Under the pieces are notes generated by a model. The model was not told the origin of the DNA and made no database searches. It worked only from the letters and a program-made list of their open reading frames with translations. The position numbers and the translations under genes were made by a program. Below are positions 20,904 through 63,929 of a stretch of DNA of 64,000 nt, in pieces. Position 1 is the first letter of the stretch. The number at the start of each line of letters is the position of its first letter. Origin of the DNA: an uncultured Spirochaetota bacterium (GTDB taxonomy: Bacteria > Spirochaetota > Spirochaetia > SZUA-6 > Fen-1364). The stretch spans positions 146,747 to 210,746 of the forward strand of contig CAVTHO010000009.1 of assembly GCA_963734545.1 (NCBI GenBank), in the 5' to 3' direction.

Positions 20904-21933
20904 ATGAAGGCCCTGGTGAAAAAAGGCCCGGGAAAGCGGCTGGAGATGCAGCAGGTCCCGATGCCCGTGGTCGGGGGCAACGATCTGTTGATCCGGGTTA
21001 CCAAGGCCGCCATCTGCGGCACCGACCTGCACATCTGGAACTGGGACGAGTGGTCGCAGCGCACCCTTCGGCCTCCTCTGATCACGGGACACGAGTTCGT
21101 GGGACGGATCGTCGACATGGGCGCCAAGCGTCAGCGGCTACGAGATCGGCGAGCGCGTCTCCGGCGAAGGCCACATCGTCTGCGGCGTCTGCAGGAGCTG
21201 CCGCGCGGGGCGCCGGCACCTCTGCACCAACACGGTCGGCATCGGCGTGAACCGTGACGGCTGCTTTGCGGAGTACCTCTCCCTGCCCGCGCCGAACGCC
21301 TGGCACGTGCACCCGGGGATCCCCTCGGAGATCGCCTGCTTCCTCGACCCGCTGGGAAACGCCACGCACTCTGCCCTCTCCTTCGACCTGGTGGGAGAGG
21401 ACGTTCTGATCACGGGAGCGGGGCCCATCGGCATCATGGCGGCGGCCATCTGCCGGCACTGCGGCGCACAGCGGATCGTCGTCACGGACGTCAACGACTA
21501 CCGCCTGGGGCTTGCTGCCAGGATGGGGGCCACCATGACGGTGAACGTGTCCCGGACCTCCATCGAGGATGCGCGGAAGGAGCTGGGGATCATCGGGTTC
21601 GACATCGGCCTGGAGATGTCGGGAAACGGCGCGGCGTTCGAGTCGATGCTGGAGAACATGTACCACGGCGGGCGTATCGCGCTGCTGGGCATCCTTCCCA
21701 ACTCGACGGGAATCCGCTGGGACCAGGTGATCTTCAAGGGCCTGGTCATCAAGGGGATCTACGGCAGAGAGATCTTCGAGACCTGGTACAAGATGCAGAC
21801 GATGCTGCAGAGCGGGCTCGACGTGAGCCCGGTGCTCACACACCGGTTTCCCTTCGAGCAGTTCGAGAAAGGGTTCGAGGTCATGCAGTCCGGGCAGCTG
21901 CGGCAAGGTGATCCTCGAGATCGCGGAGGATGA
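20904..21933 (+). CDS. tdh: L-threonine 3-dehydrogenase, with an apparent +1 frameshift near 21128
   Basis: Collinear with E. coli Tdh: [10 protein letters not shown]...[16 protein letters not shown], then [32 protein letters not shown] in the next frame. A single extra base near aagcgtc explains the shift. TATAAT lies 14 nt upstream of the ATG. Confidence 0.85.
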
Positions 21934-23158
21934 AGAAGATGCTTGACCATGACGCGCGGAGGGAGCTGGGTGAGCGGATTGCCGAAATCCGTTCCGCGGG
22001 GACGTACAAGGAGGAGCGGGTCATCCAGACGCCGCAGGGGGTGCATCTTCGCGTGCGGCCGGGAAACGAGGTGCTGAACTTCTGCGCCAACAATTATCTC
22101 GGGCTCGCCTCCCACCCGCGGGTGCTCGCTGCCGCGCACGCGGCCTCGACCGCTGGGGATACGGCATGGCGTCGGTGCGTTTCATCTGCGGCACCCAGGA
22201 GGTGCACGCGGAGCTGGAGAAGCGCATGGCGGCGTTCCTGGGCACGGAGGACGCGCTGCTGTACTCTTCCTGCTTCGACGCCAACGGCGGCGTCTTCGAG
22301 CCTCTCCTGGACAAGGACTGCGCGCTCATTACCGACCAGCTCAATCACGCTTCCCTCATAGATGGCGCGCGGCTGTGCAAGGCAAATCGTTTCATCTACG
22401 CCCACGCGGACATGAGCGATCTGGCGGAGAAGCTCGGGGAGGCGTCAACCGCGCGGCTCAGGATGATCGTCACGGACGGGGTTTTCTCCATGGACGGAGA
22501 CCTGGCGAACCTCCCCGAGATCTGCGCGCTTGCCGAGAAGCACAGGGCAATGGTCATGGTGGACGACAGCCACGCCACGGGATTCATCGGCAGGAAAGGC
22601 AGGGGCACGGCGGAGCACTTCGGCGTGACCGGCCGCGTGGACATTATCTCCACGACGTTCGGCAAGGCACTCGGGGGCGCCACGGGAGGATGCCTCGCAG
22701 GCAGGAAGGAGATCGTCGAGCTCCTTCGCCAGAGGAGCAGGCCATACCTGTTCTCCAACTCGCTGGCGCCGGTGGTGGCGGGAGCGAGCATCGCCGTCAT
22801 CGAGATGCTCAGTGAAAGCACCGAGCTGCGCGACAGGCTCGAAGAGAACACGGTCTTTTTCCGGCAGGCCATCACAGACGCGGGATTCGACGTGAAGCCC
22901 GGCATACACCCCATCGTTCCCATCATGCTCTACGAGGAGAGCCGGGCCGTGGAGATGGCGCGCCGGCTCCTGGATGAGGGCATCTACGTCATCGGCTTCT
23001 CCTACCCCGTGGTGCCGAAAGGCCAGGCCCGGATTCGCGTGCAGGTCTCCGCCGTGCACACTCGAAACGACCTGGAAAAGGCCGTGTCGGCATTTGCCCG
23101 GGTGGGAAGGACCATCGGCCTGCTGAAACAGGATGCGCGGAAAAACTTGACCGTGTGA
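21930..23158 (+). CDS. kbl: 2-amino-3-ketobutyrate CoA ligase (glycine C-acetyltransferase), with an apparent frameshift near 22143
   Basis: [16 protein letters not shown]...then [19 protein letters not shown] in another frame; strong collinearity with E. coli Kbl through [26 protein letters not shown] overlaps the tdh stop (ATGA). Confidence 0.85.
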
Positions 23159-23274
23159 GTCGGCCATGTTACGCTTCGAGCGCAATCCGCTGCCTTGCAC
23201 GGCACACCGTGCAGTTCCGCGGATTCGGTCTTCCCGATAAACGTGCCGCCAATCCTGGATTCAGGGGGAGAGGA

Positions 23275-26351: not shown

Positions 26352-27981
26352 ATGGTGCACAGCATCGCCATCGCCGATGTCCCCTCCACCACACCCCTGT
26401 TCGCCGATTTCTGGAAAGGAAAGGAAACCTTTCGCGGCCTTCTTCCCCGGCATTTCATGGATCCGCGCGCCTTCTCGGAGCAGGCCGGCCTGCTTGCCCG
26501 CGCCCGCTACGACCGCGGCACGCTGTGCACGGTGCTCCGCGAGCAGAACGAAAGGTTCGGCGCGGGCGCACAGACGCTGCGGTCCATCGACGCGCTGGAG
26601 GGGCCCGGCTCCATGGTCGTGATCGGAGGTCAGCAGGCCGGGTTGTTCGGCGGCCCCCTCTACACGGTGCACAAGGCCCTGACGATCATCGTGCTCGCCC
26701 GCAGGATGGCGAAACAACTGCGACCGGCCGGTGATCCCCGTGTTCTGGATCGCCTCCGAGGACAGCGATCTCGCGGAGGTGAATCACACCTTCGTTGTCG
26801 ACAGGGACGGTCGGCTGCGGGAGCTTCGTCTGCACGAAGCGGTGGAAGCGAAGCTTCCGGTCTCCCGTGTGCGCCTCGGGGAGGAGATCGGGCCGCTCAT
26901 GAACGAGCTGGCCGCCGCGCTTCCCGAGGCAGATGGCGCGGAGAATGTACTCGCCGACCTGCGGGCGGCGTACGCCCCCGGCCGCACCTATCCGCAGGCC
27001 TTCGGCTCCTGGATGACGAATCTCTTCGGCGAGCAGGGACTGGTGCTCGTCGATCCTTCCGATGTCCGGCTGAAACGGATGGCGCATTCGCTTTTCGAGC
27101 GCGAGATCAGGGAGAACAGCCCGGTGAGCGCCGCGGTCATCGCGCAGACCCGCCGGATGATCGAGGCGGGATACGCGCCGCAGATCGAGCTGCGGGAAGG
27201 GTTCCTCACTCTTTTCCACCAGGACCCTGCCCGGCAGGCCATCGCGCTCCGCAGGAACGGATTCGAGCTGAAGTCGACCGGGAAGACCTTTACAGCGGAG
27301 GAGCTCGCCGGTCTCCTGGAGCGCAGCCCGGAGAGCTTCACTCCCAACGCGGTGCTGCGTCCCCTGTACCAGGACACGCTCTTTCCCACGCTGGCTGCGG
27401 TCCTCGGTCCATCGGAGATCGCCTACTTCTCACAGCTCACGCTGGCCTATGAGCGGATGGGCATCCCGATGCCGATCGTTTTTCCCCGCTCCTCCCTCAC
27501 CCTGGTGGAACCGAAAATGGAGAAGCTCATGGCCAGGCTCGGCGTGGGCCTGAGGGACCTCCTCGTGCGCGGGGAACGAATAATCGACGACATATTGAAG
27601 AGAGACATTCCCGAGTCCCTCACCACGCGGGTCATGGAGGGCAGGGCCTCTGTGACGGCAGCCTGGAAAACGATCATCGGCGAGATCGACACGCTTGATC
27701 CCACGCTGCATCGGACGGCGGAACTGGGATCAGGCAGGGCCCTGCGCCAGTTCGATTTCATGGAAAAGAAGATCGCGCAGGCAGCCCGGAAAAAGAACGG
27801 GATCCTCCGCGGGCAGGTGGAGAGGCTCGTCGCCGCCCTGGCGCCCAGGAACGGCCTGCAGGAGAGGACGCTCACGGCGCTCCCCTTTCTTGCGCGCTAC
27901 GGAAAACAGATTCTCACCCAGGCAGCGGAAGGCATCGATCCGTTCGCCCCCGAGCACAGGGGGCTGGTGGTGGATCAATGA
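26352..27981 (+). CDS. bshC: Bacillithiol biosynthesis cysteine-adding enzyme BshC, with an apparent frameshift near 26725 (CCGG duplication)
   Basis: N-terminus and MVVIGGQQAGLFGGPLYTVHKALTIIVLARRMAKQL in frame 0, then PVIPVFWIASEDSDLAEVNH and the rest of BshC in frame +1. Removing one CCGG restores R-P-V-I. Confidence 0.8.
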
Positions 27982-32699: not shown

Positions 32700-32717
32700 A
32701 TTCCTCCGGCTCATCTG

Positions 32718-34419: not shown

Positions 34420-35777
34420 CTACAGAGCGGCACCGTTTGAGGCGATCACCCTCTGATACCAGTTTGCGCTCTTTTTCCACGTGCGCGCCTGCGTATGAAA
34501 GTCGACGTGGGTAATCCCGAACCGTTTGCTGAACCCGTACGCCCATTCGAAGTTGTCCATCAGCGTCCAGAGAAAGTAGCCTTCCAGCCTCACCCCGTCA
34601 TTGATGGCCCGGTGGGCCTCGGAAAGGTGGGTGGATATGTAGTCGATCCTGTCGTCGTCCTGCACCTGCCCATCCACGACCAGATGGTCAGGAAAGGCAG
34701 CTCCGTTCTCCGTGATGACAATGACCGGGTCGTCATACTCCTTCTTCACCTGCATGAGGATATCGTACAGCCCTTCCGGAAACACCTCCCAGCCCATCTC
34801 CGTCCGCTCGCACTCTTTTCGGAGCGCATGTTGGTACCCGAGGAAGCCTCCCGCGTCGCTCGCGTACACCCTTTCGGGGAAGTAGTAGTTCAGGCCGATG
34901 AAATCAACGGGGTTCGTTTTCAACAGCTCGAAGTCCTGCCGCTCCGTGTGAGGAGCCACTTTGTTCCTGGTATACAGGCTCAAGATGTCGTCTGGATACG
35001 AGCCCTTCAGGACAGGGTCCAGAAACCAGCGATTGGTCTTGCCGTCCGCGAGCCGGGCCGCCTCGATGTCCGACACACCGTCGGTGAATGGATAGACCGG
35101 GTGAACGTCCAGGGCGATGCCGATCCGGTGCTTGCCGGGACTCAGCTGCCGATAGGCCTGTACGCCGAGGGAATGCGCGTGCAGGAGGATGTGCGACGCC
35201 TGCACCGCCGCGCCGAAGTCCTTCAGCCCCGGCGCATGGATTCCCATCTGCATGACCGGCGAACGAGGACACCTGGGGCTCGTTGAGCGTCATCCAGATT
35301 TTCACCCGGTCACCGAGCCGCATGAAGACCGATGCGGCATAGTCGGCAAACCAGCTTGCCGTGTCCCGATTGGTCCAGCCTCCCCTGTCCTGAAGTGACT
35401 GCGGCAAGTCCCAGTGATACAGGGTGGCGGCAGGTTCGATACGCGCCTCCAGCAGCGCGTCCACGAGGGTCTCGTAGAAATCCAATCCTCTTGGATTGTG
35501 CCTTCCGTTTCCCATCGGAAACACGCGCGGCCAGGAAATGGAGAACCGGTAGGACGCCGAGCCCGAGGTCCCGCATGTTCTCGATGTCGTCCCGCCACCT
35601 GTGGTAGTGATCGCAGGCAAGGACCCCGGTCTCCCCGGTCTCGATGGCGCCGGGCACCTGGCAGAAGCGGTCCCAGATCGACTCGCCCTTTCCATTCTCC
35701 CGTGCGGCGCCCTCGATCTGGTAGGCGGCAGTGGCTGCTCCCCAGAGAAACCCCGTCGGAAAACCGCTTGAAGGCAT
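34420..35777 (-). CDS. bglB: GH1 beta-glucosidase, spread over three frames (two apparent frameshifts near 35235 and 35580)
   Basis: [15 protein letters not shown]...[20 protein letters not shown]...WMTLNEP (acid/base), [11 protein letters not shown] (nucleophile), [14 protein letters not shown] lies 9 nt upstream of the ATG at 35777. Confidence 0.8.
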
Positions 35778-35916: not shown

Positions 35917-38482
<2,566 letters not shown>

Positions 38483-38496
<14 letters not shown>

Positions 38497-43168: not shown

Positions 43169-44961
43169 ATGACCGGCAACGAGCTGAGGCGCATTTACAT
43201 CGATTTTTTCAAGGAAAAGGGCCACGCGGAGATCTCCGGAAAGTCCCTCATCCCGGAGAACGACCCCACTGTTCTCTTCACCACGGCGGGGATGCACCCC
43301 CTGGTGCCCTATATCCTGGGAGAGCCGCATCCCGCGGGAAAGAGGCTGGTGGACTGCCAGAAGTGCATGCGCACGGACGACATCGACGAGGTGGGCGACT
43401 CCGCGCACCTCACCTTCTTCGAAATGCTGGGCAACTGGTCCCTGGGGGACTACTTCAAGAAGGACGCCATCGCGTTCAGCTACGAGTTCCTCACGTCGCC
43501 CCGGTGGCTGGGCTTCTCCGCGGATTCGCTTTCCGTGACCGTCTTCGCGGGAGACGGCGAGGTGCCGCCGGATCACGAGGCGGCGGAGAACTGGAAATCC
43601 ATCGGCATTCCGGAGGAACGCATCCATTTCCTGCCGCCGCAAGGACAACTGGTGGGGACCGGCGGGTCAGACCGGACCGTGCGGCCCGGACACGGAGATG
43701 TTCATCGACACGCGGCAGTCCCCGCCTGCGGCCCCGACTGCAAGCCGGGGTGCCATTGCGGAAAGTACATCGAGGTCTGGAACGACGTGTTCATGCAGTA
43801 CAACAAGACCGCGGACGGAAAGTACCTGCCCCTCGCGCAGAAGACCGTGGACACGGGCATGGGGGTCGAGCGCACCCTCGCCATGATCCAGGGAAAGAAG
43901 ACCGTCTTCGAGACCGAGCTGTTCTGGCCGATCATCGAGCATCTTCAAGAAATCACGGGCAGGACGTACGGCGCCGAGCCGGCGGTCGACACGTCCTTCC
44001 GCATCATCGCGGATCACCTGCGCTCCTCCGTGTTCATCATCGGGGACGACCGGGGCGTGAAACCCTCCAATCTCGGCCAGGGCTACATCCTGCGCCGGCT
44101 CATCCGCCGCACCATCCGTCACGGCCGCAAGCTCGGCCTGGAGGGCAGCTTCCTCGGGGCGCTGGCCGCTCGATGTCATTGCCATCTATGAGGAGTTCTA
44201 TCCCGAGCTGCGCGAGCGCGCGGAGATGATCACGACGGAGCTGGGGCTGGAGGAAGAGCGGTTCTCCGAGACTCTGCAGAAGGGCGAGCAAGAGTTCGAA
44301 AAGCTGCTGCCCAATCTCATGAAGAACCCGCAGAAGATCATCCCGGGCCGCGTGGCGTTCCGCCTCTACGACACCTATGGGTTTCCCATCGAGATCACGG
44401 AGGAGCTGGCGCGCGAGCACGGCATGGCCGTGGACAGGAAGGGATTCGACGAGGCCTTCGAGAAGCACCAGGAGCTGTCCAAGGCGGGCGCGGAGAAGAT
44501 CTTCAAGGGCGGCCTGGCCGACCATTCGGAGATGACTACCCGGCTGCACACCGCCACCCATCTCCTCCACCAGGCGCTTCGCATGGTGCTGGGCACGCAC
44601 GTGGCGCAGAAGGGCTCCAACATCACCGTCGAGCGGCTTCGATTCGACTTCTCCCACCCCCAGCCCATGACGGAGGAGGAAGTCCGCAAGGTCGAGGCGA
44701 TCGTGAACGAGCAGATTGCCCGCAAGCTGCCCGTGACCATGGAGGTCATGACCATCGAGGAGGCGCGCGCCGCCTCGCGCCATCGCGCTGTTCGGGGAGA
44801 AGTACGCGGAAAAAGTGAAGGTCTACACGATCGGGGACTTCTCCAAGGAAGTCTGCGGAGGACCGCACGTGGAAAACACGGGCGTTCTGGGCAGGTTCGT
44901 CATCCAGAAAGAGCAGTCATCCTCGTCCGGCGTCAGGAGAATCCGCGCGGTGCTGGAATAG
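43169..44961 (+). CDS. alaS: Alanine--tRNA ligase, short form ending after the editing domain, with four or more apparent frameshifts
   Basis: N-terminus LFTTAGMHP...[44 protein letters not shown] lies in an alternate frame, then [29 protein letters not shown]. Editing-domain [24 protein letters not shown]. The C-terminus [35 protein letters not shown]...RRIRAVLE sits in another frame ending at TAG ~44959. No C-Ala domain is encoded. Confidence 0.85.
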
Positions 44962-45055: not shown

Positions 45056-46517
45056 CTACGCCGGCTTCTGCAGCTTCTCCAGCAGCTCGCCGATCCCGAG
45101 GTTCTTGATCCCCATGCGCTGCGCGCGCACGAGCACCTCCAGCGCCTTTTCCTTCTTGTCCAGGGCGAGCCAGCTCTGCGCGATCTCGATGTAGAGCCGC
45201 GGATTCTTCGCGTCGTTGACCAGCAGCCCGGAGAGGCTCTCGATGGCCTCCAGGTAGTTGCCCTTCTCCTTGTTGATGAGGGCGAGCCCGAGGACCGCGT
45301 AGCTGTCGAACTCGATGTTCAGCGCCTTGCTGTAGTATTCCCGGGCGGTGTCGAGCTCGTTCATTGCGCGGTAGGAATCTCCGATGCGGGTCAGGATGAC
45401 CTTGTTGTCGGGGTCGGCATCCAGGATTTTCTGCCAGTAGAACAGCGACTCCTGCGGATCGTTCATCCCGCGGTAGCAGTCCGCGAGCCCGAAGAGGGCG
45501 TAGAAGTTGTTGGGCTGGATCTCGAGCGCCTTCTTGAAGTACGGGATGCCCTTCTCGTAGGTCTTGAGCTTGCGGTAGCAGTTGCCTATGGAGGTCAGCA
45601 CCCAGATGTTCTTCGGGTCCTTCTCGTGCATCCGCTCCCAGTAGCGTGAGCGCCTCCCGGTACTCCTTCAGGTCGAAGTGCAGGTAGCCCAGCCCGGTGA
45701 GAGCATACGGGTTGCCCGGATCGATCTCCAGGATCTTGTGGTAGATTTCCTTGGACCTGTTGAAGTCCAGCACCTTGCGATACGCGTCGGCGATCCGGGT
45801 GAGCACCGTCACGTCGCTGTCGCCCTGGTCCAGGTACTTCTCCCAGATCTCGATGGCCCTGTGGAACTGCTTCAGGGACCGGTAGCTGTCCGCCAGCCCG
45901 ACGAGGGCGTACTTGTTTCCCTCGTGATGCGTGAGGCAGTCCTCGTAGTAGCGGATGGCCTCGTGGTAGGACTTGCGCTTGCGCGCCGCGTCCCCCATGC
46001 CCACGAGGGCGTAGTTGTTCTGAGGCTCCACTTCGAGGATGCGGCGGAAGTTCTCCTCCGCCTCCGCAATGTGGTCCTCCTTGAGGAGCTGGTAGCCCCT
46101 CTTGGAAAGCTCGGATATCGACGCCGGGACGGGCGCGGACGTCTTCTCCTCGTTGCTCATTGTATTTTCGATTTCCCCTCTGCCAGCCATTGTTTCATTA
46201 CCATGTGCGATTTTTTCCACCATCGCGGCGATCTTGTCCGGAGCGGGGGCCAGCCAGTACGCCTGCAGGGCCTCGAGCGGCTTTCCCCCCTTGGCGTGGT
46301 GGTCTCCTATTCTGATCAGTCCATCGGAATACTTCGTGGTGATGAATATCCGCTGTGCGAGGCCGAACTCACCCTTATTGAACAACTGGTTGCCCTTTCT
46401 AATGAGCGCCGCTCGCTGCTCGCTAGTGAGTGGCGCTGGTTTCTCGCCCGTTACCTTCAGAAAGCCGCCTGAGGGCAACTTTTTAAGGATGTCCTGGGTG
46501 CTCATCCTTGCCTTCAC
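45056..46517 (-). CDS. TPR-repeat protein, with one apparent frameshift near 45625
   Basis: Ten or more TPR motifs (e.g. NYALVGMGDAARKRKSYHEAIRYYEDCL) across two frames. The N-terminal ~130 aa are non-TPR. Confidence 0.6.
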
Positions 46518-47330: not shown

Positions 47331-50046
47331 CTACGCGTGCACCACCTCCCTGCCGTTCCTCGCGCGTACTATCGCGCGCACGTAGATCTTCGCGATTTCG
47401 TTGAGGATGATCGTGGAGAAGGACAGCAGCCACACAATGCCCCACTGGAGAGCGTCCAGTCCGACGAGCTTGAAGTAGGAGGCGAGTCCGGGGACCAGGA
47501 CGACGATCACCTGCATGAAAGAGCAGAGAAAAAAAGCGCCGATGAGCCAGCGGTTCTTGAAAATGCCGACCGAGATCAGGGACTTGGTGATATGACGGGT
47601 GTTGAAGGCGTGGAAGAGCTGGCTGAGGCTCAGCACGCAGAAGGCCATGGTGCGCGCCAGGGGGAGCCCTGTTTCTTCGCCGCCGCCCAGGGACAGGCCG
47701 ATGAGGTAGGCTGCCAGGGCGAGGGAGCCTTTCACCAACCCGTTGAGAATGATGAAGGGCACGCCGCCGTGCGCAAAAAGGCTCTCCTTCGGGTTGCGCG
47801 GTTTTTCCCTGATGGCGTCCGGGTCGCCGGGATCCATGCCGAGGGCGAGGGCGGGAAACGTGTCCGTCACCAGGTTGACCCACAGCAGGTGGATGGGCAG
47901 GAGCGGAATGGGCATGCCGATGAGGATCGGGAAAAAGATACAGAGGATCTCGCCGAGGTTGCACGAGAGGAGAAAGAATATCGCCTTGCGGATGTTGGCG
48001 TAGATGTGGCGGCCTTCCTCGACGGCCTTGACGATGGTCTTGAAGTTGTCGTCGGCGAGGATGATGTCCGACGCGCCTTTTGCCACGTCCGTCCCGGTGA
48101 CGCCCATGGCGACCCCGATGTCCGCCGCCTTCAGGCTGGGCGCGTCATTCACGCCGTCTCCGGTCATCGAAACGACATGCCCATCCGCCCGGAATGCCTT
48201 CACGATGCGCACCTTGTGCTCGGGTGACACGCGCGCAAAGACGCGGACCGTCTTGACGCGCCCCGTCAGGGCGGGGTCGCTCAGCGTGTCGATTTCCGGG
48301 CCGGAGAGGGCCTCATCCTCGCTCTTCGCTATCTCGAGGGCACGGGCGATGGCGAGGGCGGTGGCCTTGTGGTCTCCGGTGATCATGGCCACCCCGATGC
48401 CGGACGCCCTGCAGACCGCGATGGAATCCTTGACCTCCAGCCGCGGCGGATCGATCATGCCGACGATGCCGAGGAATACGAGTCCCTCCTCGAGCCCCGC
48501 GCCCTCGGGCTTTTCGGAATCTTCCAGCTCGCGGTAGGCGGCGCCGAGGACGCGCAGGGCCCTGCCCGGCCATCTCGTCCGCCTCGGCAAGGATCGCTTC
48601 CTTGCGCCGTTTGTCCAGGGCCACGGCTGACCCGTCCGACATGACCCGGTCGCAGGACTCCAGGAGCCGGTCTGCCGCGCCCTTGGTCATCACGAGGCGC
48701 TGGGCGCCGCGGGCATGGACGGTGCTCATCATCTTGCGGTCCGAATCGAAGGGCAGCTCCCCGATGCGGGGTGCGTCTGCAAGGATGACCGACTTGCAGA
48801 TCCCCGCGGCGTTTGACAATTCGAGGAGGGCGATCTCGGTCGGATCGCCGGTCGCATCATCCGGGTTGCAGGCGGTGACGCCGGGCGCCCCGAGGGAGGC
48901 ATCATTGCACAGAGCTATCGCCTCCAGCAGGAGCCGCTGGCCGGACCGCGAGGCATCGATGGACGATGCGTTTCCAGATGCGCCGTCCGCGGACCATTCC
49001 ACGACGGACATCCTGTTCCGGGTGAGGGTTCCTGTCTTGTCGGAGCAGATCATGGTGACGGCCCCCAGGGTCTCGACAGCCGGAAGGCGGCGGACGATCG
49101 CCTTCTCCCTGCTCATGCGCTGGACGCCGATGGCGAGCACGATCGTCACGATCGCGACGAGGCCCTCGGGGACGGCGGCCACTGCGAGGGACACCGCGGT
49201 GAGGAAGAGCTCGAACAGCGTTTTCTCCGCGATGAGCCCGCGCCGGATAAGCTCCTCGCCCACGGCGATGGCGAACAGGAAGCCACAGAAAATGAGGATG
49301 ACCACGCCGAGCTTCCTGCCGAAATCGTCCAGCTTCTTCTGGAGGGGAGTCTCTTCCTGCTCCTCCGCATCGAGCATCGTGGCGATGCGCCCCAGCTCGG
49401 TGTCCATGCCCGTCCCGACGGCGAGTCCCAGGCCGCGGCCATAGGTGGCCAGGGTCGAGGAATACCCCATGTTGAGCCGGTCGCCGAGGGCCGAGTCCCC
49501 GTCCACGACCAGGTCGGCGCGCTTCTCCACGGGGACCGACTCGCCGGTGAGCGAGGCCTCCTCCACCTTGAGGTTGACCGCCTCGATCCAGCGCAGGTCG
49601 CAGGGTATCACGCGTCCCGCCTCGATCACGACGACGTCCCCGGGCACCACCTCATCCGAGGCGATCTCGCGGGGCGAACAGTCCCGCACGACGACGGCCC
49701 TGGGCGCGGAGAGTTTCTTCAATGCCTCGAGGGCTTTCTCCGCCTTCGATTCCTGGATGACTCCGACCACCGCATTGATGATGACCACGGCGAGTATAAT
49801 CACCGCGTCCGACCCTTCGCCGAGGAGGACGGAGATGCCGGCCGCGGCCAGGAGGATGTAGATGAGGACGTCCTGAAACTGCTCCAGCACGCGCCGGAAG
49901 AGGCTCTTGCGCTTCCTGGCGGCGAGGCGGTTGGGGCCGCAGGTCTCGAGCCTGCGCGCCGCCTCTGCCGAGTCGAGGCCCCTCGAGGGATCGACACGGA
50001 GCGCGGCAATCGCCTGGGCAGTCGTCTTGACGTGCCATTGATCCAT
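47331..50046 (-). CDS. P-type cation-transporting ATPase (P2-type, Ca2+/Mg2+-like), with one apparent frameshift near 48560
   Basis: Phosphorylation site ICSDKTGTLT, TGES, MITGDHKATALAIA, VSMTGDGVNDAPSLKAADIGVAMG. Strong AAAGGAGG RBS before the ATG at 50046. Confidence 0.85.
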
Positions 50047-56486: not shown

Positions 56487-56560
56487 GTTCTCTTGAAAAA
56501 GGACCGGGGGGCGCCGGCTCCCCGGTCCTCCGGTGAACGGGAAAGGCATCGGCACCAGAA

Positions 56561-57466
56561 ATGAGACACCTAGGCGCGTCCGCCCGCGAACGTTTTTCCG
56601 GCTTCCTCTTCATCTCGCCCTGGTTGATCGGCTTCATTGCATTCTACGCGGGCCCCATGCTCTTCTCGTTCATCGTGAGCTTCACCAACTGGGATTTCTT
56701 CAAGAACATGACCTTCGTGGGCCTGCGCAACTATTTCAGGATTTTCAGCCCTGATGAGTATGCGCTGCCCGGCCTGCTGAAGACTTTCCTCTTTGTGGGC
56801 CTGGAGGTGCCGCTCCAGCTCATCGGCGCGCTTGCCATTGCGCAGCTCCTGACGAGGAAGCTCAGGGGCGTCAACCTCGCGCGCAGCCTCGTGTACCTTC
56901 CTGCCGTGATCTCGGGTCCTGCGGGAGGCCTCATCTGGCGCTTCATGCTCGGCAAGCAGACGGGGATCTTCAATTACTTCCTGTCGTTCTTCGGCGTGAA
57001 GCCGATTCCCTGGATCGATGACCCTCACTACGCGCTGTTCTCCATCATCTGCATCGGGCTCTGGGCGGTGGGACAGCCCATGATCCTCTTCCTCGCGGCG
57101 CTGCAGGGCGTACCCGACGTCTTCTACGAAGCCGCGGAAGTGGACGGGGCAAGCGCGACGCGGAAGTTCTTCCGCATCACGCTGCCGATGATATCACCCA
57201 CGATACTGTTGAATGTGATCATCATCATGATCAACCAGTTCCAGATGCTGGCGCCTCTGATCGTCATCACCTCGGGGGGACCCGCCAAGGCGACATACCT
57301 CTACTCCTACGTGGAATACGACAACGCGTTCCGGTTCATGAAAATGGGCTATGCCTCGTCTCTCTCGTGGCTCATGTTCGTCATCATGCTCGTCGTCACG
57401 CTCCTTTTGTTCCGGTCCTCCCGCAGGTGGGTGTTCTCCTACAGCGAAAGGGGAGATATCCTGTGA
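56561..57466 (+). CDS. ABC sugar transporter permease (MalF/UgpA-like)
   Basis: Six TM segments; EAA-like loop AAEVDGASATRKFFRITLP. Confidence 0.85.
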   Translation: MRHLGASARERFSGFLFISPWLIGFIAFYAGPMLFSFIVSFTNWDFFKNMTFVGLRNYFRIFSPDEYALPGLLKTFLFVGLEVPLQLIGALAIAQLLTRKLRGVNLARSLVYLPAVISGPAGGLIWRFMLGKQTGIFNYFLSFFGVKPIPWIDDPHYALFSIICIGLWAVGQPMILFLAALQGVPDVFYEAAEVDGASATRKFFRITLPMISPTILLNVIIIMINQFQMLAPLIVITSGGPAKATYLYSYVEYDNAFRFMKMGYASSLSWLMFVIMLVVTLLLFRSSRRWVFSYSERGDIL

Positions 57467-58302
57467 GGGCCTCGCGCGTGGGGAGCATTGCGGGAGCAGG
57501 CGTTCGCTACCTCATCCTGCTCGCGGTGAGCGTCGTGTTCCTCTTCCCCGTCTACTGGGTGTTCCTCAAGGCAATCAATGGACCCATCGCCATCTTTCAG
57601 TATCCCCCCGACATCTACCCCGTTCGGTTCAGCCTGGCCAATTTCCAGAATGCCTTCCACAATTTCCACCTGGCCAGGAACTTCCTCAATACGCTCAAGA
57701 TCATGGGCTTCGCGCTGGTGGGCGCTTCCCTTTCCTCCGCGGTTGTCGGATTCGGATTCGCGCGGATGCGTTTTCGGGGAAGAAACCTGCTCTTCATCGT
57801 GGTGATCGCGAGCATATTCGTCCCCTGGGACGTGAAGGTGATCCCTCAGTTCATGGAGTTCAGCGCGCTGGGATGGATCAACACCTACCTGCCCCTGCTC
57901 GTGCCCCTGTTCTTCGGCTATCCCTTCTACATATTCATATTCCGCCAGTTCATCACACAGATCCCGTACGAGCTCGACGAATCAGCCATCATAGACGGCT
58001 GCAGCCGCGTGGGCATCTTCATCCGGATCATTCTGCCGAACCTCACCCCGCCGTTCATCACCGTACTCGTCTACGAGTTCGTGCGGGTCTGGAACGACTT
58101 CCTCGACCCTCTCATTTACCTGAACAAGTCCAGCACCTATACGCTGAGCCTCGGCATCTACCACATCATCTCTCCGTGGTTCATGGACTGGGGGGCCCTG
58201 CTCGCCGCTTCGGCCCTCTCCGTCCTCTTCCCGGTTGTGCTATTCTTCGTATTGCAGAAATATCTCTTCGGAGGCCTCGTGCTCTCCGGGATCAAAGCGT
58301 AG
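57463..58302 (+). CDS. ABC sugar transporter permease (MalG/UgpE-like)
   Basis: The GTG overlaps the upstream stop (GTGA). EAA loop DESAIIDGCSRVGIFIRIILP. Confidence 0.85.
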   Translation: MRASRVGSIAGAGVRYLILLAVSVVFLFPVYWVFLKAINGPIAIFQYPPDIYPVRFSLANFQNAFHNFHLARNFLNTLKIMGFALVGASLSSAVVGFGFARMRFRGRNLLFIVVIASIFVPWDVKVIPQFMEFSALGWINTYLPLLVPLFFGYPFYIFIFRQFITQIPYELDESAIIDGCSRVGIFIRIILPNLTPPFITVLVYEFVRVWNDFLDPLIYLNKSSTYTLSLGIYHIISPWFMDWGALLAASALSVLFPVVLFFVLQKYLFGGLVLSGIKA

Positions 58303-58329
58303 CCCTTCCGCGGTAGTCCGCGGAGTTGG
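58303..58329. repeat. Second copy of the REP-like element (CCCTTCCGCGGTAGTCCGCGGAGTTGG), followed by a nested GC-rich hairpin (58330-58375)
   Basis: Identical apart from 2 nt to the 44962 copy. Both begin right after a TAG stop codon. Confidence 0.5.
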
Positions 58330-58389
58330 ATGGCGAGGTCGGCCGAGGCCATGGATGGCCGAAAGGCCGACCGTTGAGGGAGGGTTACT

Positions 58390-59541
58390 GTGACAAAGAC
58401 ACTCGCGGCCGTTCCCCCCATGGGATGGAATTCATGGAATGGCCTCGGCGCCCGGGTGAGCGAGAAGTCAGTTCGGGAGGTGGCGGCAGCGCTCGCGTCA
58501 TCCGGCATGCGCGAGCTGGGCTACCGGTATGTGGTGATCGACGACTGCTGGTCGATGAAGACGCGGGATTCCCATGGCAACCTGGTGCCGGACCGCGAAC
58601 GGTTCCCCAACGGGATGGCGGCGCTGGCCGAATTCGTGCACTCGCTCGGCATGAAGCTCGGGATCTATTCCGATGCGGCCGAGCTCACGTGCGGCAAATA
58701 CCTGGGAAGCCTCGATTTCGAGGAGCAGGATGCAGCCCTGTGGGCCTCGTGGGGAATCGATTTCCTCAAATATGACTACTGCCACGCGCCTGCCGACCAG
58801 CTGACGGCAATTGCACGCTACCGACGCATGGGCGAAGCGCTCCGATCGACAGGACGCGAGTTTCTCTTCAGCGCCTGTGAGTGGGGCGGGAGGAGCCCCT
58901 GGCTCTGGGCGCGAGATATCGGGGCTCAGATGTGGCGCGCAACCGCGGACGTCCTGGACAGCTGGACGGATGTCTTTGTCCCCCAGGCTAACTGGACAGG
59001 GATTGGAATCGACACCGCCATAGAGGCAGCTGTTCCACTGCACGAGTACGCGGGTCCCGGCGGCTGGAACGACCTTGACATGCTCGTCATCGGCCTCAAG
59101 GGCCGCGGAAACATCCCGGGTGAAGGGGCCACGTTCTTCGAATACCGATCACAGATGTCGATGTGGTGCATGCTGTGCTCGCCTCTTATGATCGGCTGTG
59201 ACATCACCGCCATGGACGAGAAGACCCGCGAGCTCTTGACGAATCCGGAGGTGATCGCGCTGGACCAGGATCCGCTGGGAAAACAGGCAATGCGCATCCG
59301 GTCCGGGTCGGGTCAGGAAGTCTGGAAGAAGCCCCTGTCGGACGGCTCCACGGCCCTTGCGCTGCGCAACAGAGCGTCGAGCGCCGCCGATATTGCGGTG
59401 CGCGCCGGCGACCTGGGCCTGCTCGACTCATACAGGGGGCGCGTACGCGATCTCTGGAAGCATGAAGACGGAGACTTCAGCTCACCGCTCTCCCGCCGGG
59501 TTCTGCCGCACGATACCGTGCTGCTGAAGATCGGGCCGTAG
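58390..59541 (+). CDS. Alpha-galactosidase (GH27)
   Basis: PPMGWNSWN, YVVIDDCW, FLKYDYC(H) and CEWG motifs of GH27. GTG start with a GAGGGAGGG RBS. Confidence 0.85.
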   Translation: MTKTLAAVPPMGWNSWNGLGARVSEKSVREVAAALASSGMRELGYRYVVIDDCWSMKTRDSHGNLVPDRERFPNGMAALAEFVHSLGMKLGIYSDAAELTCGKYLGSLDFEEQDAALWASWGIDFLKYDYCHAPADQLTAIARYRRMGEALRSTGREFLFSACEWGGRSPWLWARDIGAQMWRATADVLDSWTDVFVPQANWTGIGIDTAIEAAVPLHEYAGPGGWNDLDMLVIGLKGRGNIPGEGATFFEYRSQMSMWCMLCSPLMIGCDITAMDEKTRELLTNPEVIALDQDPLGKQAMRIRSGSGQEVWKKPLSDGSTALALRNRASSAADIAVRAGDLGLLDSYRGRVRDLWKHEDGDFSSPLSRRVLPHDTVLLKIGP

Positions 59542-59547
59542 AGCCTC

Positions 59548-62166
59548 CTACGTGCAGAGCCTCACCAGGGTGAGGCGGCGCGATCGCAGTCGAACCTCCG
59601 CCATCCCATCGACAACCGGCAGGGCATCACGATCGTCCTCGAGCGTTCCGCAGAGAAATGCGGCGCGCACGGGCGCTCCGCCGGGCCGCAGCCGGGCCGT
59701 CGTCTCATCCCTCCCCACGCATGTCAGGCGCAGCATGGTTCCCCGGCCGTCTGCCGCCGGCTTTGCATGATTGACGAGGACCCCTTCCCCTTCAACCACG
59801 AGCAGCCTGCCCTCCCGCGCGCCATTCGTGACGAACGCCGGATGCGCGAGCAGGGGGTGGATGAACTCTCGCGCGCACGGGATGAGCCCTGCCGCGTCCG
59901 CGGCAGAGGATGTCAAAAACCCGTATCGAAGCACGGTGAGGCCGGGCTGGGTAAGGGGGTAGTTGGTGTACCAGTAGTTGTTCATCGGCCAGGCCAGAAG
60001 GAGCGGTCTTTCCGGCCGCGGCACTTCACCGAGCAGCCGGCCGAATCCGAATCCGCCTGCCTGCACGAGCGTTGCGTCCGGACAGAAGAGGGCAGCCACC
60101 CGGCCCGCGCCCTGCATGGCCGCGAAGGTGTCGACGCTCATCCATCCTCGACTGCTTCCCGGAAGCTGCTCCCTGTCGAGCTCCACCGGCACTCCTGCCG
60201 TGTCGAACAGGCACTGCCACGAGGCGGGGAGATCGAGCGGAAAGGCGAAGTAGATTGACTCAGGCTCCGTGCAGTCCGTCTTGTCCAGTGCTGCCTCCAG
60301 CTCCATGCAGGGAGAGTCGGCCCGCAGGGTGATTCGCTGCCGCAGGCTCCTGACCCCGGGCGCTTCCAGATACCGGATGAAGGAGATCGAGTCGGCGTCC
60401 CGTTCGACGCCGAGAGAGAGCAGGCGGGAGGCCCGCCGCCGCTCGGCGCGCCACCCGGTTTTCCAGCAGTGCTGATCGAGCTTCTCCCTTTCCAGGTCCC
60501 GTTCATAGAAGGCCTTCCGCGTGCCGTCAAAGAGCGGGTCGGGCCGCTCATGCACGACATCGAAGAAAGCATATTCGCTCTCTCTCGGAACAGCTTCCCA
60601 TCCCAGGGTCTTGTCGAGAAGCGAGGTGACGCGTCCCGTGGAGGAATCGAATGAAAGCCGATGGAAGGGCGACTCGATGATTGTCGAGGTTCCTCCCTGC
60701 ACACGGGATGCAAGCCCGGGATTTCTCGGGGCGGGTACAAGACCGGAGAGCGGCAATTTCATCCAGCCGAAAGCCGGCAGCTCGAAGGGACCGTAGACGA
60801 CACCGCGCGCACGTCCCTCGGCCTGCTCCGCCCAGGTGAAACGGACACTCCGCAGGCTCTTGCCCGGTTGCTTCCACGTGTCGGGCACCCGCACGTACGC
60901 CCGGCGCGCCGTTTGAACGGGATTCAGTATAAGGAGGTGATCGGGTCTCGCGGACTGCGCCGGATTGGCCGCCAGGCTTTCCAGCTCGCCGATGAGCAGG
61001 TATTCCGCGCGCTCGCGCGCCTGATGTGCAAGCGCGGTCTTCAAAGCGGATTGCGCACGCGCGGGAGGCAGCTCGGGCGCGGGGTCCCAGTAGGTCCACG
61101 TATGCTCGCAGAACAGCGCGAGGTCCGCCCACGCCTGATCGGAGACTTTCTTCGCGGCCGCCCTGCGCGGAATCCCGGCTCCCCGCTCCTCGGCCGCGCG
61201 GGCCCCGGAGAGCAGCTCCGCGCGCTCGAGAGTGAACCGCGCCTTCCTGCTCACCGCTGTCTCGTACGCCGTGCTGCCACTGCCGAAGCTCCAATAGTCG
61301 GTCCAGTCGCCGCTCAGCACCGGGAGGGAGGCGGGTGCAATCCTGCGGAGCCGCGCGAGCAGGTCCGCAGGAGTGACGTAGCGGATAGGGGGAGTGCCGA
61401 CCGACTCATTCCATTGCCTGATGAGCCCCGCCACCCAGGGATTCGGCGGCGAATTGTCCCAAGCTTCAGGGGAGTTGGTGGTCGTCAGGTAGAGGAAGTC
61501 ATGCGGGTATCCGCTTTGCTCGAGGCGCGCGCAGAAGCCTGACAGGCCTTCCCGCATTCGCTCTATGGAATTGTCCCAGGTCCTCAGGAGCTGATCGAAC
61601 ATCGTGTAGTGGCTGCCGTTCATGACCAGGAGCCTGCGCCCCGAGGGGGCTGTCCAGAGGAAGACCCCCGGTCGCGGTGAGACGAAATGTCCGTTGTCAA
61701 TATTCACTGCCATGGTCAACAGCTCGATGCCCGCGTCCATCATCAGGTCCGCGAGCGGCCACGCGACGCCATTCACGTCATGCTGGTTGAGGGTGACAAT
61801 GGGAATCCCGAACCTGCGTCGCAGCGCCCCGAGCGGGGCAAGCTGGCGGCTGAGAATCTCGGCGCTGCACAACGGCGACGTGTTGTACTGCATTGCCGAG
61901 ATGCCAAGGCGCCCCTGGGAGAGAAAGGTCTGGAACCGGTGGAGGTCCTTCTCGTCCGCGGTCTCCATCCAGCGCAGGACAGGCGCGGTTACCTCGCAGG
62001 TCCATTTGGGCCGCGAGTGCGCGGGCCAGTCGGCAGTCTCCGACAGCATCTCGAGCGCCTGGTCGATGTATTCGCTGTGGAGCTCCCAGACGATGGGCGG
62101 GGAGTGCGTGTAGCCCACGTCCAGGTGGCTGTGATGCAGGACGAGGATCTCCCGGATCTCCGGCAT
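59548..62166 (-). CDS. GH38-family alpha-mannosidase-like glycoside hydrolase
   Basis: N-terminus LVLHHSHLDVGYT (GH38 metal-binding signature). 872 aa, uninterrupted. Confidence 0.75.
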   Translation of the reverse strand: MPEIREILVLHHSHLDVGYTHSPPIVWELHSEYIDQALEMLSETADWPAHSRPKWTCEVTAPVLRWMETADEKDLHRFQTFLSQGRLGISAMQYNTSPLCSAEILSRQLAPLGALRRRFGIPIVTLNQHDVNGVAWPLADLMMDAGIELLTMAVNIDNGHFVSPRPGVFLWTAPSGRRLLVMNGSHYTMFDQLLRTWDNSIERMREGLSGFCARLEQSGYPHDFLYLTTTNSPEAWDNSPPNPWVAGLIRQWNESVGTPPIRYVTPADLLARLRRIAPASLPVLSGDWTDYWSFGSGSTAYETAVSRKARFTLERAELLSGARAAEERGAGIPRRAAAKKVSDQAWADLALFCEHTWTYWDPAPELPPARAQSALKTALAHQARERAEYLLIGELESLAANPAQSARPDHLLILNPVQTARRAYVRVPDTWKQPGKSLRSVRFTWAEQAEGRARGVVYGPFELPAFGWMKLPLSGLVPAPRNPGLASRVQGGTSTIIESPFHRLSFDSSTGRVTSLLDKTLGWEAVPRESEYAFFDVVHERPDPLFDGTRKAFYERDLEREKLDQHCWKTGWRAERRRASRLLSLGVERDADSISFIRYLEAPGVRSLRQRITLRADSPCMELEAALDKTDCTEPESIYFAFPLDLPASWQCLFDTAGVPVELDREQLPGSSRGWMSVDTFAAMQGAGRVAALFCPDATLVQAGGFGFGRLLGEVPRPERPLLLAWPMNNYWYTNYPLTQPGLTVLRYGFLTSSAADAAGLIPCAREFIHPLLAHPAFVTNGAREGRLLVVEGEGVLVNHAKPAADGRGTMLRLTCVGRDETTARLRPGGAPVRAAFLCGTLEDDRDALPVVDGMAEVRLRSRRLTLVRLCT

Positions 62167-62176
62167 GAGGAGTCGG

Positions 62177-63929
62177 CTACTCTCTCTCGTGCAGCAGCAC
62201 CTTGAGCTGCTTGATCTCGCTCACGAGCCGGTCCCTGCCCATCTCCCTGAACCGGCGCGGCACCATCTCGCGGCTCGTGCACTCCAGCACCGCCACAAGG
62301 TTCTGCAGCTCGATCTCGTGCGGATACGCGGGCGGCATGAAGTCCTGAATCGTTTCCTCCAGGTCCCCCTTTGTCACGAAGACGTGGTTGTTCATCGCGG
62401 AGAGGAACTTGGCGCGAATGAGCACCGATTCGAGGTCAGCGCCCGAGAACTCGTATTTGTACCGACGGAAGAGGTCGGCCACGTTCGTCTTCTGCATGCG
62501 CAGGTTGAGCTTCTTGACCAGCGTGGCGAACAGGTCTTCTTTCTCCTCTATGTTTTCCGGGTAGAAAAGGGCGAGGTGCTCCTCCGCCCTCCCCTGCCGC
62601 TTGAGGTCGATCGGCAGAAGGTCCGGACGGCAGGTAATGAGAAACCAGATTATCTTTCCCCGGTACTCGGTGTTTCCCATGAAGGAGGCGATCTGGCCGA
62701 AGATCCTGTTGCTCGTTCCCGAATCCCCGTCCTGGTTCCTGTCTCCCAGGAAAGCGTCCGCTTCGTCGATCATCACCCCGACGGGCGCCATGGCCTTGAG
62801 GATGTTGAGGATCTTCTCCAGATTGCTCTCCGTGACGCCCTGCCACTTGGAGCGGAAATTGCGGAACTTCACGATCGGGATGCCGATATCCCCTGTAAAG
62901 GCGGTGACCATGAAGCTCTTGCCCGTGCCCACCGGACCGGGCAATGAGATACCCCATGGGCAGCACGTCGAACCGGCTCTCGCGGATGGCCTTTGCGGCG
63001 CTGCGAAACCTCTTTTTCACGAAATCGTGACCGGAGACGGCCGAAAGGTCGTGCTCGCTCTCGATGAACTCCAGGAGGCCGACCGCTTCCGCCTCGATAA
63101 TCTGCTTCTTCTTCTCTTTCAGATAGCCGAGCCCGATCTCCCGGTCCTCCTGGAAGCTCTCCGCGGCGAGCTGGTTGAGGTTCACGAGGTTCAGGCCGCT
63201 CGTGATGCCGGCGAACTCGGGTATGGTGAGCGTTTCCTCCAGCAGGAGCTTGCCGTTCCTGTCCAGGAAATGCAGGAAGCTCTCCCGCACTTTCTCGTCC
63301 GGAATGGGGAGGTTCACCTTGATTGCGCTGGGTGAGCGCACGATGGTCGGGTTGAGGTCCGCCAGGTTCTCCGTAAGAAGGAGGATCGATACGTCGCCCT
63401 GCGTGAAGATCGGATCATTGGCCCAGCGATTGAGGGTGACCAGGCAGTAGCGGTCCTCGTCGGTATAGCGGGAGATATCCGTGTTGGGGACCACCGTTTC
63501 AGAGTAGTCGATGATGAGCACGATGCGCTTGTTGTGCGTGATATTGGCGTAGAAGTATTTCTCCAGATGGCTGAGCGCCTTCACCGGATTGCGTGAGAGC
63601 AGGTTTCCCGGCGTGGCGTGCGGCATGAGATGCTTCATCTTCTCCAGATAGTCTTTTTTCATTTCGGGCTTGCAGAAGCTCACCCCAGAGGAGCGGTCAT
63701 AGAAAACGATGATGTCCCTGTTTCCGAAAAGCACCTCGGACACGTAGTCCTGTATCTTCACGAAATTGAACTCCCCCTCTTTCATCTTGTGAGGGAGAAA
63801 ATCCCGTATGTTGCCGGAAAGCAGATAGAGATTCGCGGTCTTCGAGCAGTACTTGTAGGAAAGCTCCTGCGCCCAGGCAGGGAGCACCTTGATGAAGGGC
63901 AAATTCTTGACAATGAGCTGTTCAGCCAT
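62177..63929 (-). CDS. AAA+ ATPase with a ~330-aa uncharacterised N-terminal domain; one apparent frameshift near 62940
   Basis: Walker A GPVGTGKSF and Walker B VMIDEAD. Sensor-2 region SGADLESVLIRAKFL. GGGAGGGG RBS. Locally lower GC than neighbouring genes. Confidence 0.65.

Follow-up and report, generated by a model that had tools for sequence, protein, structure and literature searches.

Single-base insertions that split conserved genes of an uncultured spirochaete probably reflect a consensus merged from related strains

We analyzed a stretch of 64,000 nt from an uncultured Spirochaetota bacterium (called the window throughout). Eleven of its genes carried frame-breaking events, 19 in total and each of one base, which were identified by collinear HMM hits, by tblastn comparison with intact orthologues and by aligning the DNA with that of relatives (Table 1). 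The positions were assigned at the level of single bases with the aid of DNA alignments to intact relatives, tblastn and direct reading of the sequence, and six independent assemblies of relatives were used for comparison (L001, L004, L006, L010, L087 and L088). All frameshifts that had been listed in the initial annotation were found to exist by the HMM, tblastn and DNA-level comparisons, and nearly all of them were located within 5 bp of the position given there; the event in the TPR gene was 21 bp off. Two frameshifts were added to that list, one in tdh (21894) and one in a gene for a hypothetical protein of 115 amino acids (46205).

Table 1. Genes and intergenic sites with single-base events in the window. 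The last column gives the coordinate of the initial annotation, followed by the refined one.
Feature	Position	Strand	Event	Initial and refined coordinate
vapC (PIN toxin)	ORF from 14962	+	one extra base, 15225..15262; interval contains A5 run	15240, now about 15225-15262
tdh (L-threonine 3-dehydrogenase)	20904..21943	+	two +1 insertions: 21124-21127, 21892-21894	21128, now 21127
kbl (glycine C-acetyltransferase)	21930..23158	+	1-bp deletion between 22145 and 22146	22143, now 22146
bshC	about 26388-27981	+	one +1 insertion, 26720..26727	26725, now 26720-26727
GH1 beta-glucosidase	34420..35777	-	two +1 insertions: 35250, 35554-35558	
clpB	35917..38496	+	three +1 insertions: 36161-36163, 36841-36843, 38061-38065	36165, now 36161; 36838, now 36841; 38060, now 38061
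alaS (short 595-aa spirochaete-type AlaRS)	43169..44961	+	five +1 insertions: 43633-43638, 43712, 43717-43718, 44166-44172, 44773-44778	43640, now 43636-38; 43715, now 43712 plus 43718; 44170, now 44168; 44775, now 44777
TPR protein (361 aa)	45056..46142	-	one +1 insertion, 45644-45646	45625, now 45646
115-aa hypothetical gene	46160..46508	-	one +1 insertion at 46205	
P-type (Ca-type) ATPase	about 47331-50100	-	one +1 insertion, 48557..48569	48560, now 48557-69
AAA+ ATPase	62177-63929	-	one +1 insertion, 62939..62941, just before Walker A motif (L087 comparison included)	62940, now 62939-41
Intergenic extra bases relative to L001	35903-4, 38794, 43145, 46513, 46539			

A Ku/LigD end-joining set is also encoded in the window, and Rfam and tRNA scans yielded no matches. 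Additional frameshifts were suspected in the Ku/ligase/TPR region (11.5-14.5 kb), the Fer4/MFS region (16-20 kb) and, at 53-55 kb, a histidine kinase/response regulator pair, but these turned out to be ordinary adjoining genes. Of the high-GC ORFs on the minus strand, those at 44823-46517, 18050-20263 and 41004-42674 are long but in part spurious, and they do not represent genes of that length. As described initially, the long genes for GH38, a hybrid kinase, FadD and PBP1C were intact at the level of the ORF or of the orthologues; for GH38, a search of the GTDB representative genomes with peptide patterns revealed no relative.

The spectrum of events was highly asymmetric, with 18 insertions of one base and a single deletion of one base, located in kbl (binomial p = 8e-5). 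When the indels were undone, i.e. 18 bases were taken out and one was put in, all 10 genes tested became single ORFs with zero internal stop codons. The corrected lengths were identical to those of the orthologues for Tdh (346 aa), the GH1 enzyme (451 aa), ClpB (858 aa), AlaRS (595 aa) and the TPR protein (361 aa), and the frame-corrected proteins were 89-99% identical to their close orthologues. Every insertion was specific for the window, and the genes that could be compared were full-length in L001-L004, L006, L010, L087 and L088. At the DNA level the closest relative was L006 with 94%, followed by the others with 86-89%; the collections searched contained no assembly of the same species. 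The ORFs disrupted by the events were at least as conserved as their intact neighbours.

The alaS gene was affected most severely. Four or more shifts had been proposed for it, and five insertions were found, three of which are packed within 82 bp. The two AlaRS fragments recognized by the model NF002436 (595 positions) matched it at positions 1-333 and 352-532, and the C-terminus was present in a third frame. Their scores were 518.5 and 289.5 bits, compared with a curated cut-off of 529 bits, and the sum of the two can serve as a rough guide only. The initial shift pushes the conserved stretch KDNWWGP..TGPCGP out of frame. A compensating +1/-1 pair, which had been proposed for this part of the gene, does not exist; one +1 insertion is followed by two further +1 insertions, resulting in a net shift of +3. 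In addition, the ORF at 42042-43163, which precedes alaS, is panE and, contrary to the earlier reading, lies outside alaS. After correction, AlaRS was 96.0% identical to the protein of L001 and 95-96% identical to intact 595-aa proteins, and none of the 212 columns found to be invariant across 110 homologues was changed. The short form of AlaRS occurred in 80 of 80 related genomes among the matches listed, from Treponema to Leptospira.

The clpB gene was divided into four ORFs, which matched the model TIGR03346 (853 positions) at positions 1-77, 79-304, 304-708 and 713-852 and thus covered the whole model collinearly. The corrected ClpB has the same length as the proteins of L001, L087 and L088, and its identity to the L001 protein was 95.1%. 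Each of the three sites carries two alleles that occur in relatives, namely AGC/ACC, CTC-AGG/CTG-CGG and GCC/TGC.

The remaining genes showed the same arrangement of collinear fragments. The Tdh fragments matched NF003808 at HMM positions 1-78 and 75-332, and the corrected protein, equal in length to the L006 orthologue, was 97.7% identical to it. The Kbl fragments matched NF005394 at positions 5-69 and 66-396; the site reads GCGGCC[A]TCGACC in L006, and the bracketed base is missing in the window. Corrected Kbl was 97.5% identical to Kbl of L006. For BshC (TIGR03998 at positions 2-112 and 110-526; 530 aa after correction), the frameshift is present, but it had been ascribed to a CCGG duplication of 4 bp, whereas the length difference to L001 is 1 bp. 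Three fragments of the GH1 enzyme matched TIGR03356 at positions 1-68, 67-184 and 171-427, and the corrected ORF has the length of that of L001. The corrected TPR protein was 98.6% identical to the L001 protein, and the site carries both a C and a G, matching the L001 and L088 alleles for Ser and Thr. Upon removal of the G at position 46205, 30 of 30 flanking bases of the 115-aa gene matched L001, and the corrected product was 92% identical. The P-type ATPase fragments matched TIGR01522 at positions 9-475 and 485-851; correction yielded ORFs of 922 aa for this ATPase and 583 aa for the AAA+ ATPase. In the case of vapC, the PIN match ends at position 47 of the 120 HMM positions, the C-terminal motif resumes in the +1 frame, and removal of any one base within 15225-15262 results in an ORF of 136 aa. 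No orthologue could serve as a reference for vapC, since L010 and L008 lack the vapBC module. The vapC event lies in a strain-specific module, close to an A5 run; it may have a different cause, or vapC may be a real toxin pseudogene.

The events were not spread evenly. The first 19 kb were clean, and the events were concentrated in the genes that are most conserved among the relatives. Between positions 1 and 19306, no frameshifting indel was detected in coding sequences in the comparison with L010, which comprised about 17 kb of aligned sequence with 85-87% identity and lacked the vapBC module. The nucleotide similarity to relatives was 91.0% for clpB, 89.9% for alaS, 91.6% for the TPR gene, 91.7% for the 115-aa gene, 94.4% for tdh and 97.4% for kbl. 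Event-free neighbours were less similar to the relatives, with 82.9% for PBP1C, 84.4% for EamA, 80.5% for PF1765 and 86.1% for hisB. Clumping by position was moderate, as variance/mean tests gave p values of 0.07-0.08 and the three largest gaps a value of 0.006; for the clean first 20.9 kb the value was 0.002, in a test that was picked after the data had been seen. The intergenic extra bases relative to L001 may represent the same artefact or real divergence.

Next, the sequence context of the events was considered. The shifts had been assigned to GG, CC and A5 runs, which was mostly wrong, since a run length of 1 was found for at least 8 of the 15 events that were scored, and the longest run involved had a length of 3. 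Classic homopolymer errors of nanopore, HiFi, 454 or Ion Torrent data would instead be expected in runs, typically with a length of 4 or more, and with deletions no rarer than insertions. Together with the 18:1 excess of insertions, this led us to reject slips of the homopolymer type; only the vapC event is near an A5 run. A common sequence or a methylation-like motif was not apparent in the contexts listed. In 8 of 8 events that could be compared with several references, the references were split, i.e. different relatives favoured the removal of different neighbouring bases, such that the window contained a union of alleles. For example, CTCA[C][G]CATG combines Ser AGC of L001 with Thr ACC of L087 and L088, and AAC[T]GC[C]CTC combines GCC of L001 with TGC of L088 and L005. 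As a null model, 4000 random insertions were simulated in the same genes with the same references. The simulated insertions were split 31% of the time, compared with 8 of 8 observed (p = 8.5e-5), which ruled out pure random-insertion noise as the sole cause. An informal tally of codon phases had seemed to argue against a merging of alleles. It was dropped in favour of the reference-split test because the gap placement by the aligner varied with the reference.

A second contig showed similar damage. L005 is a 278-kb ENA contig (contig_19348; assembly ERZ25039480) of a different relative, and its clpB gene contains one-base insertions of a like kind at different positions, e.g. GTC+G, GGG+C and CTC+G; these insertions unite synonymous alleles found in L001 and L088. 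In the split test, 4 of 7 events were split, compared with a null expectation of 23%; this result was marginal (p = 0.05), and 3 of 7 events showed no split. The shared signature suggests that the problem is systematic for such datasets.

We conclude that the events are almost certainly technical artefacts of some kind and not mutations of the organism. The proposal that they are sequence errors rather than pseudogenes is supported by the intact orthologues, the full-length corrected proteins, the 18:1 ratio of insertions and the damage in L005. Judging from the sequence comparisons, we favour a consensus merged from strains as the specific mechanism in this Spirochaetia MAG, with a probability of roughly 0.78. 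Reads of two related haplotypes, from co-occurring strains or close species, would have been piled together where they are similar, i.e. in the most conserved genes. Some single-base or double-base differences between the haplotypes would have been represented as an insertion plus a deletion instead of a mismatch. The consensus would then retain both alleles in tandem, leading to a +1 frameshift, and in one case it would retain neither allele, leading to the -1 shift in kbl. We infer a second haplotype in the sample as well as the sequencing platform and the behaviour of the assembler or polisher; a long-read origin of the assembly is most likely.

Precedents for parts of this scheme exist. 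In collapsed diploid assemblies, neighbouring allelic variants misalign reads and thereby introduce INDEL errors (PMC8445201). The collapsed (mosaic) consensus of Trypanosoma brucei Lister 427 resembles the scheme proposed for the window in that apparent frameshifts truncate ORFs where neighbouring allelic variants shift the read alignment; the INDEL errors of Lister 427 vanish once the haplotypes are separated, and they are uneven and track the location of the variants (PMC8445201). In contrast to Lister 427, the alleles in the window would belong to strains or species of a metagenome and not to homologous chromosomes, and the evidence is comparative and does not stem from phased reads. The window also resembles frameshift-fragmented long-read assemblies of isolates and metagenomes, in which indels of 1 bp split conserved genes into collinear ORFs (IDEEL-type truncation; Sereika et al. 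2022, PMC9262707; Kastor, PMC12007338; proovframe, 10.1101/2021.08.23.457338). This problem is reportedly more severe in bins of low coverage and in communities like those of soil, and more frameshift errors have been reported for ONT soil metagenomes (PMC13087279). However, errors in nanopore and HiFi consensus sequences are typically homopolymer-linked (PMC12007338, PMC9262707), and deletions outnumbered insertions in the nanopore assemblies examined (PMC12007338), whereas 18 of 19 events in the window were insertions and most of them were outside runs. Hence the consensus behaviour assumed here departs from the textbook.

The strongest competitor, which we nevertheless regard as unlikely, is ordinary residual read noise, i.e. 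random indels of single reads from one haplotype in a long-read assembly that has a low depth and is unpolished or underpolished. Fragmented ORFs, intact orthologues and patchiness are all known from frameshift-ridden long-read MAGs, and L005, which has a contig name in the style of Flye, has a like problem. Also, an allele split is lacking in three L005 events and in those events of the window for which a single reference was available. However, read noise would produce the union of alleles in 31% of cases and not in 8 of 8, and an 18:1 excess of insertions without a preference for homopolymers is not the reported profile of nanopore or HiFi data. Furthermore, zero errors of the substitution type were present at the 212 invariant AlaRS columns in spite of five indels in the gene, and noise caused by low depth would not track the conservation among relatives, as the events do.

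It is very improbable that the frameshifts are genuine mutations, generated by decay, a mutator phenotype or insertions of the NHEJ type and rescued by paralogues or at the level of expression. Second copies of the genes elsewhere in the genome would be compatible with the window data, vapC is possibly a real toxin pseudogene, and the Ku/LigD set might provide the machinery, as end joining by Ku and LigD is a repair route known for adding single bases. Decaying bacterial genomes, such as those of Mycobacterium leprae and of recent endosymbionts, contain many conserved genes that are interrupted by frameshifts. However, pseudogene decay also brings about larger deletions, a deletion bias, nonsense codons and substitutions of conserved residues. 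No such traits were found here, and the disrupted genes include that for the one type of AlaRS that the clade has. Five independent insertions would have had to occur in the essential 1.8-kb alaS gene, pushing KDNWWGP..TGPCGP out of frame, and yet the invariant residues were kept and no nonsense codon arose. Natural indels in bacteria reportedly show a bias towards deletions (Mira, Ochman and Moran 2001) and an association with repeats, whereas the window is insertion-biased. In addition, the relatives are intact at every site, and like insertions occur elsewhere in the unrelated L005 contig. A variant of this view, in which a peatland spirochaete population recently acquired about 18 +1 insertions via error-prone Ku/LigD joining, in genes that are essential or conserved and include that for its only AlaRS type, and survives by second copies or +1 decoding, is even less probable. 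Least probable of all is programmed recoding, in which +1 ribosomal frameshifting or transcriptional slippage bypasses the shifts: almost all events share the +1 sign, but the contexts are heterogeneous without a common slippery motif or homopolymer, the sites are conserved in no relative, several events occur per gene, with three within 82 bp in alaS, and we know of no such recoding for these families.

In the merged-strain reading, the errors are insertions that keep both alleles, concentrated in those genes that are best conserved between relatives living together, and not the familiar homopolymer slips, so that homopolymer-aware polishing would miss them. A frameshift-aware or haplotype-aware correction would repair such errors. 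Automated ORF calls between 20.9 and 64 kb are expected to be fragmented, and the completeness or pseudogene statistics of the MAG to be distorted. AlaRS, ClpB, Tdh, Kbl, BshC, the GH1 enzyme, the P-type ATPase and others should be annotated as intact, which removes a false biological signal.

Same-strand frame switches were found in a codon-usage frame plot at the sites where the initial annotation had named frameshifts. NCBIfam scans of stop-to-stop pieces gave abutting, collinear model coordinates for ClpB (four pieces), GH1 (three), Tdh, Kbl, BshC, the P-type ATPase and AlaRS; the observation of frameshifts is confirmed. Every junction was placed by tblastn with intact orthologues; for the ATPase, AAA+ and vapC genes the junction was located by inspecting the sequence itself. 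The coding events comprised 18 insertions versus one deletion (binomial p = 8e-5). A compensating pair had been proposed in alaS, and the excursion itself is real, because on reading three frames across 43560-43800 a conserved 24-residue AlaRS stretch was seen to leave the frame and to re-enter it about 80 bp later; however, the census lists +1 events only (43636, 43712 and 43718). The HMM alignment of AlaRS passed straight through this excursion, and an apparent two-base insertion at 43717 consisted of two single events, each uniting two alleles (ACG/ACC and A/G). The upstream ORF previously assigned to alaS is panE (2-dehydropantoate 2-reductase). A few extra bases were also present between genes, at 35903, 38794, 43145, 46513 and 46539; these may be events of the same kind or genuine divergence.

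Coordinates of frame-breaking events and of other features in the window
Feature	Position	Strand	Change	Remark
vapC	about 15240		+1	
tdh	21127		+1	
tdh	21894		+1	
kbl	22146		-1	
bshC	26720-27		+1	
GH1	35250		+1	
GH1	35554		+1	
clpB	36161		+1	
clpB	36841		+1	
clpB	38061		+1	
alaS	43636		+1	
alaS	43712		+1	
alaS	43718		+1	
alaS	44168		+1	
alaS	44777		+1	
TPR	45646		+1	
115-aa gene	46205		+1	
ATPase	48557-69		+1	
AAA+	62940		+1	
End-joining gene set	9331-14509			complete
LigD-like protein	9331-11499			phosphoesterase and primase-polymerase domains; internal ligase domain matches weakly
ATP-dependent DNA ligase	12721-13797			separate gene
Ku	13610-14509			
vapB-vapC module	14623-15417			AbrB/SpoVT-type; PIN
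ERG2/sigma-1 receptor family protein	16030-17052	-		PF04622, E = 2e-45
Long open frame	18050-20263	-		largely spurious; MFS and Sir2 on opposite strand
kbl fragment P0152	22166-23158			330 aa
Segment with GH38 gene	28700-34400			G+C 0.59-0.60
Long open frame	41004-42674	-		largely spurious; EamA
panE	42042-43163	+		
alaS	43169-44961			
Long open frame	44823-46517	-		largely spurious; TPR and 115-aa gene
Sugar-utilisation cluster	55230-62166			ABC solute-binding protein, two permeases
GH27 alpha-galactosidase	58390-59541			in sugar-utilisation cluster
GH38-N-like protein	59548-62166			second, divergent, 872 aa; in sugar-utilisation cluster

The reference set consisted of six independent assemblies of relatives, which span about 35 kb of the window and share its gene order. 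It included JGI metagenome contigs L001 to L003 (86-89% DNA identity; bshC-bshB-GH1-clpB-PF1765-PBP1C-EamA-alaS-TPR-115aa-hisB-ATPase), ENA contig k141_501614 (L004), a JGI contig with tdh-kbl (L006, 94%), a 130-kb JGI contig covering window 1-19306 (L010, 85-87%) and two GTDB MAGs (L087 and L088). The genes in all of these assemblies were intact. Frame-corrected AlaRS and Kbl were 95-97% identical to metagenome-contig proteins, those with an organism name being labelled 'Spirochaetia bacterium'. Among the AlaRS matches listed, the closest GTDB representatives were two uncultured Spirochaetia MAGs (86-87%), including a SPRUCE peatland MAG, followed by Rectinema and Treponema-type genomes (about 70-73%). 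One database protein, P0152, is identical to the 330-aa kbl fragment of the window.

Gene content differs locally between the window and its relatives. The vapBC module is contig-specific, with about 100 bp at this place in L010 and L008. The segment of about 5.7 kb encoding a 980-aa GH38 alpha-mannosidase-like protein, an ABM monooxygenase and several ORFs that match no family is not in L001, where bshB directly adjoins GH1; its G+C is somewhat lower than the 63% of the window, and no close relatives of the GH38 protein were found among GTDB representative genomes. The panE gene between EamA and alaS has no counterpart at this place in L001-L003; in L004, radical-SAM and oxidoreductase genes stand there instead. 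The window also encodes a strong match to the ERG2/sigma-1 receptor family, best known from eukaryotes. Three long open frames were judged largely spurious and attributed to high G+C, the real genes being shorter or in another frame or strand. The 64 kb yielded no tRNA or tmRNA genes and no Rfam hit at or above a family's gathering score.

Deleting the 18 inserted bases and adding one base turned the ten tested genes into single ORFs without internal stops, at orthologue lengths (tdh 346, GH1 451, clpB 858, alaS 595 and TPR 361 aa); the eleventh, vapC, was restored to 136 aa. The corrected proteins were 89-99% identical to close orthologues and at least as conserved as those of unbroken neighbours (PBP1C 85%, EamA 89%, hisB 90%). 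Had a decaying gene taken up five independent real mutations, many substitutions should have accumulated alongside them; in corrected AlaRS, none of 212 alignment columns invariant across 110 homologues was changed. This AlaRS is of the short form (NF002436; about 595 aa), which lacks the C-terminal C-Ala domain, and the same length class is seen in Treponema, Breznakiella, Rectinema and one Leptospira MAG. Because the form occurs in 80 of the 80 related genomes listed, from Treponema to Leptospira, it is a housekeeping enzyme. Moreover, natural bacterial indels show a deletion bias and are tied to repeats, the opposite of what the window shows. Together, these findings support the original view that the frameshifts are artefacts and not pseudogenes. 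The vapC event has no reference and lies close to an A5 run, inside a module specific to the strain; it may represent another type of error or a genuine toxin pseudogene.

The attribution of the shifts to GG/CC/A5 runs did not hold. Each possible single-base removal was scored against orthologue proteins. Of the 15 scored events, at least 8 lay outside any run, and no event involved a run of more than three bases. The consensus errors reported for nanopore and HiFi are tied mainly to homopolymers (PMC12007338; PMC9262707), and in the nanopore assemblies examined in PMC12007338 deletions outnumbered insertions. At the window's events, different relatives favoured removal of different, adjacent bases, so that the window carries the union of two alleles. 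At 36161 (CTCA-C-G-CATG), L001 has AGC (Ser) versus ACC (Thr) in L087/L088. At 36841 (CT-G-C-A-GG), L001 has CTC AGG, and removal of A yields CTG CGG, following CTG CGC of L088 and the further relative L005; all variants encode Leu-Arg. At 38061 (AAC-T-GC-C-CTC), GCC in L001 stands against TGC in L088/L005, and at 45646 the window holds C as well as G, corresponding to the Ser and Thr alleles found in L001 and L088. Such a split was found at all eight multi-reference events, compared with 31% of 4000 random insertions simulated in these genes and tested against the identical set of references (p = 8.5e-5), the alleles being compared through relatives at 80-94% identity.

L005 (ENA/NCBI contig_19348, ENA ERZ25039480, 277,804 bp), from a different relative at about 80% identity, showed the same one-base insertion type. 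Within 2428-9921 and 11846-20376, its clpB, GH1, PBP1C and EamA genes were fragmented and alaS was clean. Its clpB carried eight or nine one-base insertions and no one-base deletions, at positions different from those in the window; GTC+G, GGG+C and CTC+G are plain unions of synonymous L001/L088 alleles. Four of seven L005 events were split versus a 23% null (p = 0.05). Two systems that the window lacks, type I restriction-modification and an AbiE pair, lie downstream of alaS in L005.

The event genes were those most similar to relatives at the DNA level (clpB 91.0, alaS 89.9, TPR 91.6, 115-aa 91.7, tdh 94.4, kbl 97.4%), and event-free neighbours were lower (PBP1C 82.9, EamA 84.4, PF1765 80.5, hisB 86.1%). 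Positional clumping was moderate (variance/mean, p = 0.07-0.08; sum of the three largest gaps, p = 0.006). The first 20.9 kb were nearly empty of events (p = 0.002, in a test picked after seeing the data), and against L010 no frameshifting indels were found in the first 19.3 kb, where gaps were only intergenic or multiples of three.

We infer a union-of-alleles consensus, a more specific and testable cause than the indel errors first suggested. Conserved genes would have drawn in reads from another, related haplotype of the sample, and some SNVs or adjacent double differences may have been encoded in the pile-up as an insertion plus a deletion. A consensus keeping both alleles would yield +1, and one keeping neither, as presumably happened once in kbl, -1. 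The same cause of frameshifts has been described for collapsed diploid assemblies (PMC8445201), and a frameshift excess has been reported for nanopore soil metagenomes (PMC13087279). The frameshifts are not a biological feature, and their biological interest is low; they have some practical value for annotation and polishing strategy.
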